This document shows, piece after piece, positions 2,408 to 48,472 of a stretch of 64,000 nucleotides of DNA (its first letter is position 1; the number at the start of each line of letters is the position of its first letter). Made by a program: the position numbers and the translations under genes. Origin of the DNA: a virus (lineage: Duplodnaviria > Caudoviricetes); the IMG/VR virus record IMGVR_UViG_3300012667_000244, positions 1-64,000 of that record. The stretch is one strand, 5' to 3'. A model generated the notes under the pieces. It worked only from the letters and a program-made list of their open reading frames with translations. It ran no database searches and was not told where the DNA came from.

Positions 2408-2758
2408 TTAAATCCAGTGCTTTGCTAATACCATCAAGCTCAACCAAGCCCACATGGTGTTAAACCCTACAAGTGTCGGGAGTGCCTTTACTCGGCTGGC
2501 CCAAATAAGTGTAACGCTTGTTAAGAGTGTTAGATAATACAATTCCCAGATTTGGATACCAAAAATCAATCCCGGGATGATAATAATGGCTTTTGCTACC
2601 CAACTAACAAACTCTACAGTATTATACCCTGTCCAGTATTCTTTAGTAAACCACATGCCGTAGCACTCACGCATATTGCGCCAACCGCTATGTGTGTAGC
2701 AAATTACCATCAGTACTAGCCACACACCTACTGCTAATAAAATTTGTTCTAATGTCAT
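2408..2758 (-). CDS. Small multi-pass membrane protein
   Basis: 116 aa with several hydrophobic stretches; abuts the TGT gene. Confidence 0.75.
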   Translation of the reverse strand: MTLEQILLAVGVWLVLMVICYTHSGWRNMRECYGMWFTKEYWTGYNTVEFVSWVAKAIIIIPGLIFGIQIWELYYLTLLTSVTLIWASRVKALPTLVGFNTMWAWLSLMVLAKHWI

Positions 2759-2934
2759 TCGATTTTACCCCATTTAATTTTTAGCCATAGTCGTTCCATT
2801 GCATAGTGCAAAGTTGCAAGAACTATATGGATTGCGACTGCATCGCTGAGACCAGTCCAGAGCGCAGTAATAAGCAAAGCCGTAACCCTATAAGTTACGG
2901 TTCTTGCTATTGTGCGAATGTGTTTTTCACTCAT
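2755..2934 (-). CDS. DUF2061-like small membrane protein (59 aa, MSEKHIRTIARTVTYRV...HYAMERLWLKIKWG)
   Basis: Missing from the track. Fills the gap exactly with TAATG and ATGA overlaps; the RTxxxTxTYR...ERxWxxIxWG pattern matches the family. Confidence 0.7.
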   Translation of the reverse strand: MSEKHIRTIARTVTYRVTALLITALWTGLSDAVAIHIVLATLHYAMERLWLKIKWGKIE

Positions 2935-3665
2935 TACTTGCTTTGTGCTGGAAGAATGTAGTTGTATTCTGCAAGACCTGAATCGACTGTAATTTGCATA
3001 GCACCTGCGTCTGCAATCTTCATAGTAACATCACCGCTCAAGTTCATGATTGATTGAACTTGTGATACAGGCCATGACCATGTACCTTTCAACTTACCAG
3101 CAATGCCGCTTTGGAAGATAAAGCTACCTGCGTGTGTGCTTGCATCACCGAAGCTGAACACTAGATTGTCATCTTTTGTGCTAACTTGGAATACAGTTTC
3201 TTCACTGTGAGCAGCCGCTTGGAACTTCAAACGCTGAATACTAGCCATGCTTGGTTGGAATTCAATATCCCACTTAGCGCCTTTGAACTTAACTGACTTC
3301 AACTTTTCGTTGATAATCTCAGTGTTCATGAAACGGTAATCGTTCTGGAAGTCGCCTGCGGCATTCTTAAAGTGCAACCCTGTTGGGATTGTTTCGTTAT
3401 TGCGTACTGCGGTGACGATGTTAATTTGAGCACCTTCTTTGTACTCTGGACACTTCAAGTGAAGGTCTAGCTTGTTTAAGTTTGGCATACCAAACACACC
3501 TTCAATGCCGTCGACTGGTGTGTGGGTTTTAGCAGTAACAATCACCGAACGGTCTTCTGCCATTGCTTCAATTTGAGTTTCTTTACTATCGCTAGTAATT
3601 TTAACCAATGGTAAAAAGCCCAGCGAATGTGTGTGTGCTACTAAGTCTTGTAAAATATCTTTCAT
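2934..3665 (-). CDS. DNA sliding clamp (PCNA/gp45-like)
   Basis: 243 aa, two-domain clamp size, C-terminal YNYILP like the PCNA YYLAP end; close to polB. Confidence 0.65.
   Translation of the reverse strand: MKDILQDLVAHTHSLGFLPLVKITSDSKETQIEAMAEDRSVIVTAKTHTPVDGIEGVFGMPNLNKLDLHLKCPEYKEGAQINIVTAVRNNETIPTGLHFKNAAGDFQNDYRFMNTEIINEKLKSVKFKGAKWDIEFQPSMASIQRLKFQAAAHSEETVFQVSTKDDNLVFSFGDASTHAGSFIFQSGIAGKLKGTWSWPVSQVQSIMNLSGDVTMKIADAGAMQITVDSGLAEYNYILPAQSK

Positions 3666-34859: not shown

Positions 34860-34860
<1 letters not shown>
32371..34860 (-). CDS. Tail fibre/receptor-binding protein
   Basis: GDKLRNAF N-terminal motif, repeated W.F..DG.L.FP units, C-terminal G..GD..G...YYC...W motif. Confidence 0.65.
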
Positions 34861-45086
<10,226 letters not shown>

Positions 45087-45791: not shown

Positions 45792-45820
45792 AAGAAAAGC
45801 ACCCTCGGGTGCTTTTTCTT
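45792..45820. terminator. Bidirectional intrinsic terminator
   Basis: AAAAGCACC-CTCG-GGTGCTTTT between convergent genes. Confidence 0.85.
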
Positions 45821-46830
45821 TACTTGTACTCTTTCTTTAGTTCCTGCGATGCTAGGTTTTTGCCTTTGCTTTCGCACATAATATCAAACTTATCCCAGAA
45901 GCTAAGAGCCCACTGGTTAACAGCCTTGTTCCAGTAAAAGTCAGAATGTGCTCGCATTTTCTGCTTTTTGTAACCACTCATAAGCAACGCTGAGTGATCG
46001 GGCAGAGTTTTTGTACAATGTCCGACGAGGACGTCTTCTCTTGAAACTGAGTAGTGTAGAGTAGGGCGAACGCCGCGCCAACTATCAATAACCTGTTTAA
46101 CACTATCGCTATCAGCATCAATGTACTCTCCTTCTCGGATCCAATTATGATGTATATCGAGCACAATAGGTACAATATCAGATATAGTGAGACAATCATT
46201 TAACCCCCATGAGTTTTCTTCGTTTTCGATTGTAATGCAGTTACGAGCTTCTTGTGAAAGGCGCTTGTAAGCCTTGCGGATACCTTCAGGGCCTTGTTTA
46301 CCTGAGATATGTACATTAATTTTAAAGTCTTGAAATGTTTTACCATAGCCCATCATACGAGCCATGTCTGCATGATACTCGAATTCTTCTATGCTACGGT
46401 CAACAATACCAGGGTTTTCGCTAGCAAGAACAGTGAACTGGCCAGGGTGCATACTAAGCCTAACATTAGAACTGCTTGCACAATCGCCAACCCTAGCGAA
46501 TTCCTTTTCCATATAAGCACGGACATCTGGTAAGCGCCAAAAGTAAGCATAGTCAGACTGAGTGTAAACAGGAAGTATATCACTGCTAAGCCGAACCATT
46601 CGGGATTGTTCATCTAATTTACCTACTCTTTCTACAAGTTTGCGTGTAGACTCGATGTTACCTTTCATCAAGTCCCACAGTTTTTCTTCAGCTACTTGTT
46701 CGCTTTGTCGGCGAAGCCAAGCGACAGTTGTGCTTCCAGTGTTGTATTGTTTAGCATCATCTTTTTTATCAATGCCATTTACTTGGTCAGGACGATCAAT
46801 CCATTTACAAGCAAATCCAATCTTTTTCAT
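45820..46830 (-). CDS. uvsE: UV damage endonuclease
   Basis: IGFAC, RLSSD, RLSMHPGQF, IENEE, LDIHH, HYS, AHSD, MCESK. Confidence 0.92.
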   Translation of the reverse strand: MKKIGFACKWIDRPDQVNGIDKKDDAKQYNTGSTTVAWLRRQSEQVAEEKLWDLMKGNIESTRKLVERVGKLDEQSRMVRLSSDILPVYTQSDYAYFWRLPDVRAYMEKEFARVGDCASSSNVRLSMHPGQFTVLASENPGIVDRSIEEFEYHADMARMMGYGKTFQDFKINVHISGKQGPEGIRKAYKRLSQEARNCITIENEENSWGLNDCLTISDIVPIVLDIHHNWIREGEYIDADSDSVKQVIDSWRGVRPTLHYSVSREDVLVGHCTKTLPDHSALLMSGYKKQKMRAHSDFYWNKAVNQWALSFWDKFDIMCESKGKNLASQELKKEYK

Positions 46831-47657
46831 ATTTTAGCTTTCGGGTATTTTTTTCTAAACGAGTTAAACAAATCTGTGATAATTCTAATCTTGTTACCTA
46901 CGCTGTCCGTTTTGGGAAAGCGACTGTGATTAGAGTACACATACGCATCTTCAATTTCTAAGTCTACCGGAGTAGCTGTATCAATTATAAGCTCAACTCC
47001 ACCCTTTGTCAACAGACTTCGGCTGATCGGAACATATTGGACTAACGGAGTTCCAGCTTTAACCAAAGTATCACCTTCTAGCACATGCCACAATAATTGG
47101 ACGCTAACTGAGTGCATGTATCGAGGATCAACTATACCAATTGCCGCAGTAAATCGGGCTTCGTTATTGTAAGAAACTGGAATTTGTAATAATACAATAT
47201 CGTCACTTGCTTTGATTCTCCAAGGAGTCTCAACTTTAACAGCGGCATGTAGACATGCTCGATCTGTACTTGGAATTTCTCGTGGGATAATTGGCTCAGT
47301 TTGAGCTGGGCTGTGCCAGCTAACATAATAATCAGTGCCGCTGAATGTGTATTTTCCCGAGTGGCGTTTAAATAAGAACGGAGTTTCCCAGCTCAGATTT
47401 TCTATATGCGGCCCCGTCTTAATAATAAAGTCAGCAGGTGCTCTAAGAACATATCCGGTGGCATTTATCTGCTTAATTGCAGGGCAATTGAGAACTGTTT
47501 GATTACCTTGTTCGGGACGGTTGCGCTCTAGATTTCCTAGATTATTCCAGTCTCGCTCAGTTAACTTACTTTCAATTACTGGGTATATCGTTGAAACATT
47601 TTGATCTAGTGAATAAAATCTAACCCATGGTTTTTCTTTCTTAAACCAATTAAACAT
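46827..47657 (-). CDS. Hypothetical protein, possible dUTPase-like beta-clip/DUF6065-like
   Basis: CPAI...GY, TPW, G.VD, KAGTPLVQYVP. Confidence 0.45.
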   Translation of the reverse strand: MFNWFKKEKPWVRFYSLDQNVSTIYPVIESKLTERDWNNLGNLERNRPEQGNQTVLNCPAIKQINATGYVLRAPADFIIKTGPHIENLSWETPFLFKRHSGKYTFSGTDYYVSWHSPAQTEPIIPREIPSTDRACLHAAVKVETPWRIKASDDIVLLQIPVSYNNEARFTAAIGIVDPRYMHSVSVQLLWHVLEGDTLVKAGTPLVQYVPISRSLLTKGGVELIIDTATPVDLEIEDAYVYSNHSRFPKTDSVGNKIRIITDLFNSFRKKYPKAKI

Positions 47658-47796
47658 TATTATCCTTTGGTATCACAATGCCATACTGTTTGTACAGCCA
47701 GTCAATGAATTGCTCAGTTTGTAAATTGGGCCCTACTTGACGGCTATACTCTTTGTAGGCAATGGTCACTCTTTCTAACCATTGCTTGTCGTTCAT
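47650..47796 (-). CDS. Small hypothetical protein (48 aa, MNDKQWLERV...)
   Basis: Missing from the track; ATGA overlap with the queD stop and fills the gap. Confidence 0.65.
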   Translation of the reverse strand: MNDKQWLERVTIAYKEYSRQVGPNLQTEQFIDWLYKQYGIVIPKDNNV

Positions 47797-48371
47797 GCTT
47801 CGTAGCTACCTGAATTTGCACCGTGTTCAAATACTTCTACACTACGAAGTTTAACACCTTGCCCAACTGGGTAACGGTTTTCGAATGTTTTAGTGTTGCC
47901 TTGTGCGTCAACATAACTCCAGCTTTCGCCTCGTTGATAAGTTTCGAGAATATCAACCATTGTGTTGAAAGCATATTCGCTAAACTTTTCGCAACCAACT
48001 GCTGGAACAATACGCAAGTCACATACTGCTCTGCGTTCGTGCGGTTTTACTTTATTAATTGCACCAGTTCCGCTAGTTAATGGGTCACCTAGGTTAGCCA
48101 TTTGTTGGAAGAACGCTAGTTGTGGATCATCTTCTGCAATTACCAAAGTGTGATCAAACATGTGCTCGCTCCACTCTTTAAACGCTTTGAGACCACCGAA
48201 GTCCATAACCCAGTTACGGCTATCCAATGTTTCAGCTTCAAAAATTAGTTTGATGCCAATTGAGTAGCCGTGTAGTGTTGAGCAGTGGCTATGTGTTGAG
48301 CGCCACTGTCTAAAACAGCAAGATAGACCTCTGTCGTTGCCGTATGTTTTTGTTGATAGATATTTTGCCAT
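47793..48371 (-). CDS. queD: 6-carboxytetrahydropterin synthase (QueD/PTPS)
   Basis: CSTLHGY, WVMDFG, FDH, CEKF, VEVFE. Confidence 0.88.
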   Translation of the reverse strand: MAKYLSTKTYGNDRGLSCCFRQWRSTHSHCSTLHGYSIGIKLIFEAETLDSRNWVMDFGGLKAFKEWSEHMFDHTLVIAEDDPQLAFFQQMANLGDPLTSGTGAINKVKPHERRAVCDLRIVPAVGCEKFSEYAFNTMVDILETYQRGESWSYVDAQGNTKTFENRYPVGQGVKLRSVEVFEHGANSGSYEA

Positions 48372-48390
48372 TGTTTAGTTTCCTTGTTAA

Positions 48391-48438
48391 CAATGACATG
48401 CAGAGTTTATATTGCGGGATGAATGCCTAAGACCGCAT
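48391..48438 (-). ncRNA. Candidate preQ1-I-like riboswitch (H-type pseudoknot) in the queD leader
   Basis: UGCGG-UCUUAGGCAUUCAUC-CCGCA-AUAUAAACUCUGCAUGUC, followed by the SD. Confidence 0.5.
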
Positions 48439-48444
48439 AATATA

Positions 48445-48472
48445 ATTATACAGGATTATTTCTTATTGTCAA
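48445..48472 (-). promoter_or_regulatory. Consensus sigma70 promoter TTGACA-16-TATAAT
   Basis: Read directly; predicted start about 48438. Confidence 0.8.

Follow-up and report, generated by a model that had tools for sequence, protein, structure and literature searches.

A covarying pseudoknot in the 5′ leader of a phage queD-like gene is a candidate translational ON switch

The window analysed here is the first 64 kb (64,000 nucleotides) of a 98-kb IMG/VR virus record, IMGVR_UViG_3300012667_000244, which belongs to the Caudoviricetes; the record is judged to be 27% complete, implying that it derives from a jumbo phage. On the minus strand of this window lies a queD-like gene with a leader of 67 bases, and the promoter, the leader element and the gene are all encoded on that strand. 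A first-pass annotation had read the leader as a preQ1/preQ0-type riboswitch controlling queD. The parts that it listed, namely a 5-bp first helix (P1), a loop ending in CAUC, an A-rich tail, a second helix (P2) formed by GGCAU and AUGUC, a Shine-Dalgarno (SD) sequence and the AUG, all lie at the positions it gave, and three features were missing from it: a 10-bp hairpin enclosing the start codon, an invariant UCUGC in the tail and two additional P2 base pairs. From the promoter to the gene, the locus has the following parts (L1–L3, loops; sequestrator, the start-codon hairpin; ORF, open reading frame; aa, amino acids).

48467–48472, minus strand: −35 hexamer TTGACA, within the 3′ end of the upstream 119-aa ORF; 12/12 consensus match together with the −10 hexamer, 16-nt spacer
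48445–48450, minus strand: −10 hexamer TATAAT
48433–48437, minus strand: P1 5′ strand UGCGG; pairs 3–31 and 5–29 covary (CG/AU/UA), 99% of cells paired
48428–48432, minus strand: L1, UCUUA; second and third bases (CU) invariant, length variable in relatives
48420–48427, minus strand: P2 5′ strand, composed of GGCAU (P2a, 48427–48423), an unpaired U and CA (P2b); supported by covariation and RNAduplex
48418–48419, minus strand: L2, UC; the invariant C48418 adjoins the P1 3′ strand on its 5′ side
48413–48417, minus strand: P1 3′ strand CCGCA; supported by covariation
48403–48412, minus strand: L3, composed of AUAUAAAC (48412–48405) and UC; adenines fixed at alternate positions 3, 5 and 7
48395–48402, minus strand: P2 3′ strand, composed of UG (P2b), an unpaired C and AUGUC (P2a, 48399–48395); supported by covariation
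48389–48398, minus strand: sequestrator 5′ arm UGUCAUUGUU; 4-nt overlap (UGUC) with the P2 3′ strand
48381–48385, minus strand: SD sequence AAGGA, within the 13-nt loop of the sequestrator hairpin, 9 nt past AUGUC
48366–48375, minus strand: sequestrator 3′ arm AACAAUGGCA, including the start codon (48371–48369) and codon 2
47793–48371, minus strand: the regulated gene, encoding a 192-aa divergent QueD/PTPS-family (T-fold) enzyme, identified by profile matches

The promoter overlaps the end of the upstream ORF, which stops at 48456, and matches the consensus in full, as the first-pass annotation had noted. Counting approximately 7 nt from the −10 hexamer, transcription is predicted to start at 48438 or 48437, i.e. 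one base before P1 or at its first base, which is the start near 48438 that had been suggested. A promoter matching the sigma-70 consensus at 9 or more of 12 positions within 30 nt of P1 is present in 60 of 125 relatives, compared to 8% of shuffled sequences; 17 of the 60 are perfect, and in 36 the −10 hexamer ends 6–9 nt ahead of P1, most often 7 nt. This spacing suggests that the aptamer begins at the predicted first base or two of the transcript, and argues against a start downstream of P1.

Taken alone, the sequence of the window does not fold beyond chance. The minimum free energy (MFE) is −15.1 kcal/mol (z = −1.56), and 18 of 200 shuffled sequences are equally stable. The comparative evidence, in contrast, is far beyond chance. 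At least 599 relatives of the QueD-like protein are encoded on IMG/VR viral contigs, and the leaders of 80 such loci were compared. At 79 of the 80 loci the motif precedes the QueD-like gene or a gene pair that includes it, and at 78 it lies directly ahead of the gene; at one locus (L028) it precedes an extra PTPS paralogue lying ahead of the QueD-like gene, and at another (L068) it is missing altogether. The two PTPS-family genes of L028 (positions 2427–3525) are arranged in tandem, encoding 168 aa and then a 174-aa QueD-like protein with a TAATG overlap, and the motif stands before the first.

An alignment of the window with 55 distinct relatives was scored for P1 and the pseudoknot. In the proposed structure, 92.3% of the cells are paired, compared to 71.3% after shuffling and at most 56.5% with slid partners. 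Eight of the 11 base pairs have changed on both sides, with double-sided changes in 123 cells. The middle pair of P1 appears as CG, AU or UA and its outer pair as AU or UA, whereas P2 occurs as GGCAU:AUGUC, GACGC:GUGUC, GGCG:CGCC, GGUG:CACC, UGGUA:UACCA or AGCAA:UUGCU, with double-sided changes at all six P2a pairs. Considering that the extraction of this alignment demanded complementarity at one P1 pair, a second set was made blind to the P1 5′ strand and to P2, by scanning viral contigs with the tail pattern only. A covariance model built from the first alignment confirmed 78 of the 80 tail-pattern matches listed, at 40–72 bits. A QueD-like ORF starts 25–107 nt downstream of all 78 confirmed matches, with protein identity down to 26%, and no QueD-like ORF was found downstream of the two unconfirmed ones. 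In this set 88.8% of the cells are paired, compared to 69.6% after shuffling. The covariation of P1 and P2 in related leaders, which the first-pass annotation had named in advance as a check, is thus present in two independently chosen sets, in line with its proposal that this phage queD-like mRNA begins with an H-type pseudoknot.

Every one of the 126 distinct elements obtained lies upstream of a QueD-like gene or, at L028, of the PTPS–QueD pair. The loop between the P1 arms, which is 15 nt long and ends in CAUC in the window, ranges from 13 to 19 nt, the variation being located in L1. The C and U of L1 are present in all 126 elements, and so is the C of L2, although the latter was demanded by the extraction patterns; the base preceding it is U in 90, A in 16 and C in 20 elements. 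Altogether, conservation is complete or almost complete at approximately 20 unpaired positions, among elements that accompany QueD-like proteins with identities down to 26%. Each phage record carries one strong copy of the motif, including records that are 98% and 100% complete, and no second copy above 18 bits was found upstream of folE or queE in seven phage records.

The comparison also extends P2. The loop bases preceding the P1 3′ strand nearly always read UCAnC, the tail ends in the invariant UCUGC, and the CA of the former is complementary to the UG of the latter across an invariant U/C mismatch. Pair 23–43 is CG in 54 sequences and AU in one, pair 24–42 is AU in 54 and GC in one, and neither is ever unpaired. 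The only variant of each pair among the 80 QueD-retrieved loci is compensated, with UAAUC accompanied by UCUUC (C-G to A-U, L063) and UCGAC by UCCGC (A-U to G-C, L012). The L063 form is shared by descent among at least 13 contigs, with 7 distinct leaders between them, and is therefore not a sequencing error. RNAduplex recovered the same interrupted helix unprompted. Pairing of UCUGC with L1 or with the 5′ flank was considered and rejected, as those partners vary while UCUGC is fixed; only CA:UG is supported. In the revised anatomy, P1 has 5 bp, L1 consists of NCU followed by 0–6 variable nucleotides, L2 is N-C and L3 has 10 nt (NUANANAY plus UC), while P2 comprises 4–7 bp in P2a, the mismatch and 2 bp in P2b, with the invariant C of L2 sitting between P1 and P2b. 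The aptamer core measures 43–49 nt, or approximately 65 nt including the expression platform.

The MFE structure of the window contains the 10-bp hairpin formed by UGUCAUUGUU and AACAAUGGCA, which buries the start codon and reuses the UGUC of the P2 3′ strand. When the segment from the P2 3′ strand to the start codon was folded in every relative, the same rule was found: bases of the P2 3′ strand double as the 5′ arm of a hairpin that hides either the start codon or the SD sequence. Start-codon platforms are of the window type or pair UGUCAUC with GAUGGCA, and SD platforms pair CCUAUG:CAUAGG, UGUCUU:GGAGACA or ACUCC:GGAGU. In 115 of 125 distinct elements, at least three of the first six nucleotides past UCUGC pair with the ribosome-binding site (RBS) window in the MFE fold. 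The shuffle control for this pairing is weak, with 46% still pairing, because shuffling keeps the base composition, and we therefore relied on explicit three-way covariation. The strand common to both helices comprises at least 2 nt of the P2 3′ strand in 108 of 125 elements and at least 4 nt in 76, and the P2 5′ arm carries the same base as its start-region counterpart at 351 of 424 shared positions. The two change together (arm and start region being GGCA/AUGGCA, GACA/AUGACA, GACUU/AUGACUU, UGGUA/AUGGUA and AGCAA/AUGGCAA), so that even the second codon co-varies with the aptamer loop. Such a co-change is the signature expected of two partners competing for one strand.

The energies estimated for the window are −9.5 kcal/mol for the sequestrator, −1.3 kcal/mol for what remains of it once AUGUC is taken, and approximately −5.8 kcal/mol for the P2 duplex before pseudoknot penalties. 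The difference between the first and the last value suggests that the default state is OFF and that the knot needs extra stabilization to open the start site. The feedback control proposed by the first-pass annotation is at odds with this arrangement: the P2 3′ strand is itself the anti-start or anti-SD strand, so the folded aptamer should switch translation on. An ON response, in which knot formation would free the ribosome site, appears to be the somewhat more probable direction of the switch.

Among known RNA families, none matched the element. The 4227 models of Rfam 15 gave no match at gathering scores over the whole window and none at E ≤ 10 over 3 kb; a search of 131 nt at E ≤ 10 returned only EAV_LTH, BTnc005 and Rp_sR47, at 7–11 bits, which were rejected as chance. 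The preQ1-I model RF00522 (gathering score 39 bits), run alone on five motif-bearing phage genomes at E ≤ 10, scored unrelated sites at 8.5–14.9 bits and nothing at the element, and preQ1-II (RF01054) and preQ1-III (RF02680) did not match the element at E ≤ 10 either; membership of a preQ1 family as defined by the Rfam models is thus unsupported. The pistol ribozyme has a similar layout, with a hairpin loop that pairs with a downstream strand after an A-rich linker; its downstream helices P2/P3 are conserved and contain the cleavage site, whereas the downstream helix of the element is a variable hairpin with the SD or AUG, and no relevant match to pistol (RF02679, assumed to be in the model library) appeared at E ≤ 10. 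The add adenine riboswitch of Vibrio vulnificus hides the RBS or start codon in its ligand-free state, and the ligand-stabilized aptamer withdraws the masking strand. The logic predicted here is alike, while the add fold, a three-way junction, is unrelated, and add regulates a gene of purine salvage or catabolism and not a pathway-commitment enzyme.

In layout, the element is closest to preQ1-I (RF00522; B. subtilis queC, T. tengcongensis, C. antarcticum, E. coli; types I–III), which is likewise an H-type pseudoknot with a 5-bp P1 and a loop-to-tail P2, has an A-rich strand after P1 and accompanies a preQ0-pathway gene. preQ1-I aptamers are approximately 34 nt long with a P2 of 3–4 bp. The element is larger than this minimal form, with 43–49 nt and a P2 of 7–8 layers, made up of five pairs, a fixed mismatch and two pairs; its L3 has alternating adenines followed by UCUGC in place of a continuous A-rich strand, its L1 has the invariant CU, and its distribution is almost confined to phage contigs. 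In preQ1-I, the base adjoining the P1 3′ strand on the 5′ side is the specificity cytosine, which follows U in type I or A in types II and III (PMC11625349); the invariant C of the element takes the equivalent place and is preceded by U or A in most elements. The preQ1-I devices are described as OFF switches (PMC11625349), whereas in the element the P2 3′ strand is the anti-RBS strand and an ON response is predicted. The resemblance to preQ1-I therefore holds for the layout and the position of the specificity C, and fails for the covariance model, the size and the predicted regulatory logic. preQ1-II and preQ1-III are also pseudoknotted RNAs on que-related genes, in their case HLout pseudoknots of approximately 80–100 nt controlling the transporter queT (PMC11625349). 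In general terms, the element has two of the features expected of a riboswitch, a covarying, conserved aptamer in the 5′ leader of a coherent set of genes and a platform whose pairing is mutually exclusive with it. Targeted literature searches found no phage preQ1 or queD riboswitch, and riboswitches are not mentioned in the two main papers on phage 7-deazaguanine (one being PMC10516641), in line with the earlier remark that no description of such an element in phages was known; the phage Seurat paper mentions the term only by citing a riboswitch review.

The 192-aa product matches PF01242 (45 bits) and phrog_2389 (113 bits), whereas its score with the QueD model TIGR03367, 34.5 bits, is below the cut-off of 89. 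It is at most 44% identical to QueD-like proteins of cultured phages, and 42% identical to that of Pseudomonas phage Iggy. The protein has CSTLHGY where E. coli QueD has CGRLHGH, and a conserved C-x-[FY]-RQWR occupies the place of the first zinc histidine of QueD; the metal site, and perhaps the product, may thus differ from those of canonical QueD. The cluster of Iggy, QueE-QueC-QueD-FolE-DpdA, includes a protein of the same phage QueD-like family (phrog_2389). In the cultured phages examined, queD lies within operons, and their QueD loci (those of Iggy, Mendera, PhiXhv-15 and BUCT-ZZ01) lack the motif, whereas the motif-bearing jumbo phages have FolE, QueD-like and QueE-like proteins, with no DpdA or QueC found. 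In Synechococcus phage BUCT-ZZ01, a phosphoribosyltransferase gene lies between those for QueE and QueD.

The genes around the module of motif and queD-like gene vary by lineage and include those for tail-fibre-like proteins, UvdE-like endonucleases, methyltransferases, sugar dehydratases, HIT proteins and metallophosphatases, indicating that the module is self-contained. Within the 98-kb record, no FolE and no TGT were found, and none of the at least eight radical-SAM genes at 66.7–79 kb is a QueE equivalog; a ‘QueC-like’ match in the record proved to be a PP-loop ATPase and was rejected as QueC. In relatives, FolE scores approximately 134 bits and a strong QueE-like gene 167–197 bits, while true QueC was not found in relatives up to 100% complete. 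Transglycosylases of PF01702, phrog_887 and PF20314 were not found in relatives, including those 98–100% complete, with the phrog_887 control silent everywhere and DpdA3 not searched for. DpdA3 is the family present in phages that stop at 7-carboxy-7-deazaguanine (CDG) (PMC10516641). With no TGT/DpdA family and no true QueC found in the record or in the 98–100% complete relatives, the DNA-modification pathway invoked by the first-pass annotation is unsupported. A route from GTP to CDG via FolE, QueD-like and QueE-like proteins is plausible in the motif-bearing phages.

Further observations concern these genomes. In a 70% complete relative (G001, 129–134 kb; L339, 5261–9793), FolE and QueE-like genes flank those for a cupin (‘cysteine dioxygenase’, phrog_4786), a phosphoribosyltransferase and a HIT-domain protein; together with the lack of a detectable DpdA, this context hints that a 7-deazapurine is handled at the nucleotide level (base plus phosphoribosyl pyrophosphate) and not by DNA transglycosylation. 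In an 86% complete genome (G007, 79544–82032, minus strand), the motif and the QueD-like, radical-SAM and QueE-like genes are adjacent on one strand, so that the switch may govern a queD–queE operon there; the QueE-like frame contains one in-frame TAA. Past the end of the window, the island at 66772–79615 of the 98-kb record (G000; L093, 2772–15615) comprises the at least eight radical-SAM genes, two of them with an N-terminal twitch (NF033640, 327 and 403 bits), two Asp/Asn beta-hydroxylase-like genes and the PP-loop ATPase with a QueC-like C-terminus (PF06508, 24 bits). The same weak QueC-like match is present in the radical-SAM island of another genome (G006). Within the window, a second perfect promoter (TTGACA-17-TATAAT, 46984–47012, minus strand) lies inside a 276-aa ORF (phrog_7084, function unknown), approximately 150 nt upstream of the UvdE-like endonuclease gene (45820–46830), and a 3406-aa ORF (34860–45080, minus strand) adjoins the block of UvdE-like and QueD-like genes.

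The distribution of the motif outside uncultured phages is sparse. A blastn search of the locus against GenBank phages yielded only a 170-nt coding match. The same tail pattern was scanned over 596 Gb of bacterial and archaeal genomes, and of at least 120 matches, the 80 listed and tested contained one true member (L160, CAIJZG010000002.1). This member has its own TTGACA-17-TATAAT promoter. Its 5.5-kb contig, which had been binned with a Bacteroidetes metagenome-assembled genome, is probably phage DNA assigned to the wrong bin; as evidence for the host it is weak. A Vibrio match (L145, 19.9 bits) lacks P1 and was rejected as chance. On these sequence comparisons, the element is best described as an abundant structured RNA family of well over a hundred uncultured phages that is essentially phage-only.

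Considering the competing helices together with the conserved aptamer, we propose, at a probability of roughly 0.6, that the leader acts as a phage-specific, riboswitch-like translational ON switch at the extreme 5′ end of the queD-like mRNA. The aptamer would be the H-type pseudoknot formed by the 5-bp P1, L1 with its invariant CU, a P2 of about five pairs, the U/C mismatch and two pairs, the 2-nt L2 whose invariant C abuts P1, and the 10-nt L3 with alternating fixed adenines. As long as the knot is absent, the sequestering hairpin (−9.5 kcal/mol in the window) would hide the AUG, or the SD sequence in other lineages; once the knot has formed, the hairpin would be reduced to approximately −1.3 kcal/mol and translation of the QueD-like enzyme would be turned on. 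Most likely, a small molecule sitting at the P1/P2 junction, where the invariant C would hold it, would lock the knot. From this C and the gene context (FolE, QueD-like and QueE-like), we infer that the ligand is probably a guanine-faced heterocycle of the GTP-to-CDG route, either a pterin substrate such as dihydroneopterin triphosphate (H2NTP) or a 7-deazaguanine. A more specific form of the proposal, for which we would give slightly less than even odds, is that of a new, phage-confined riboswitch class, a distant cousin of preQ1-I, which would sense an intermediate between GTP and CDG (H2NTP or another pterin, or CDG itself) and activate translation of the enzyme that commits to the pathway.

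Several points weigh against this proposal. The SD sequence of the window lies in the loop of the hairpin, so the hairpin may only dampen translation, and the shortened residual hairpin could stack on P2, which keeps the direction of the switch conditional. An ON switch on a biosynthetic gene is unusual. Moreover, all known preQ1 classes are described as gene-off devices (PMC11625349). The transcription start is a prediction from the promoter, the ligand is a candidate proposed from sequence and gene context, and the invariance is partly circular, as several positions were fixed by the extraction patterns, yet the motif is missing in only one of the 80 loci retrieved through QueD.

Of the alternatives, the one that survives best, although unlikely, is a real two-state RNA switch that is flipped without a metabolite, by an RNA-binding protein of the phage or host, by temperature, by Mg2+ or by co-transcriptional folding kinetics that time QueD synthesis during infection. 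It would draw on the mutually exclusive helices, which are shown, whereas a ligand is proposed, and on the many proteins of unknown function in jumbo phages; however, the approximately 20 near-invariant unpaired positions are typical of a ligand pocket and would be needless for a thermometer, the motif is bound to a single enzyme gene in differing genomic contexts, and the arrangement around the specificity C is shared with preQ1-I.

Product feedback, in which a variant preQ1-I riboswitch would bind preQ1, preQ0 or CDG and repress queD, would fit the 5-bp P1, the C following U or A ahead of the P1 3′ strand, the A-rich tail and the location on a que-pathway gene, and it could operate if the ligand stabilized the residual AUG-masking helix, given that P2 and the shortened hairpin are contiguous and could stack. 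We regard such an OFF switch as improbable, considering that the element goes unscored by RF00522 at E ≤ 10 in all five genomes and no Rfam family matches, that the SD and AUG lie outside P2 while the anti-RBS strand lies inside it, and that the residual hairpin amounts to only −1.3 kcal/mol; in the SD-sequestering lineages, P2 takes away both G-C pairs of the 6-bp helix.

A constitutive structured leader that does not switch, e.g. one protecting the 5′ end from RNases or enhancing translation, would suit the location of the knot at the outermost bases of the transcript, a place where stable structures protect mRNAs, yet it would leave the three-way covariation of the P2 5′ arm, the P2 3′ strand and the start region as well as the conserved single-stranded bases unexplained, and we consider it very unlikely. 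A chance structure, or an element that acts as DNA (e.g. a promoter-proximal operator), for which the insignificant single-sequence fold and the abutting promoter could be cited, is effectively refuted by the covariation, as the compensatory changes keep pairing and not sequence, the slid and shuffled controls fail, and the element is retained where the promoter is 16–30 nt away or undetectable.

To our knowledge, riboswitch classes confined to viruses are almost unknown. The element, a candidate pseudoknot switch of translation on queD-like mRNAs, is abundant, with at least 599 QueD relatives in IMG/VR and the motif present at nearly every one examined, and at approximately 65 nt with its platform it is small enough for direct testing. 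The proposed switching mechanism can be read from its covariation record, in which a single strand has two mutually exclusive partners and one of these is coding sequence. If the more specific proposal is true, no earlier member of the preQ1-like pseudoknot family would be of the ON type, and no riboswitch would have been known before to govern phage 7-deazapurine metabolism. Identification of a ligand would reveal what these uncultured jumbo phages produce from GTP with FolE, QueD-like and QueE-like proteins and no detectable QueC or DpdA, and would provide a compact, naturally ON pseudoknot switch for engineering.

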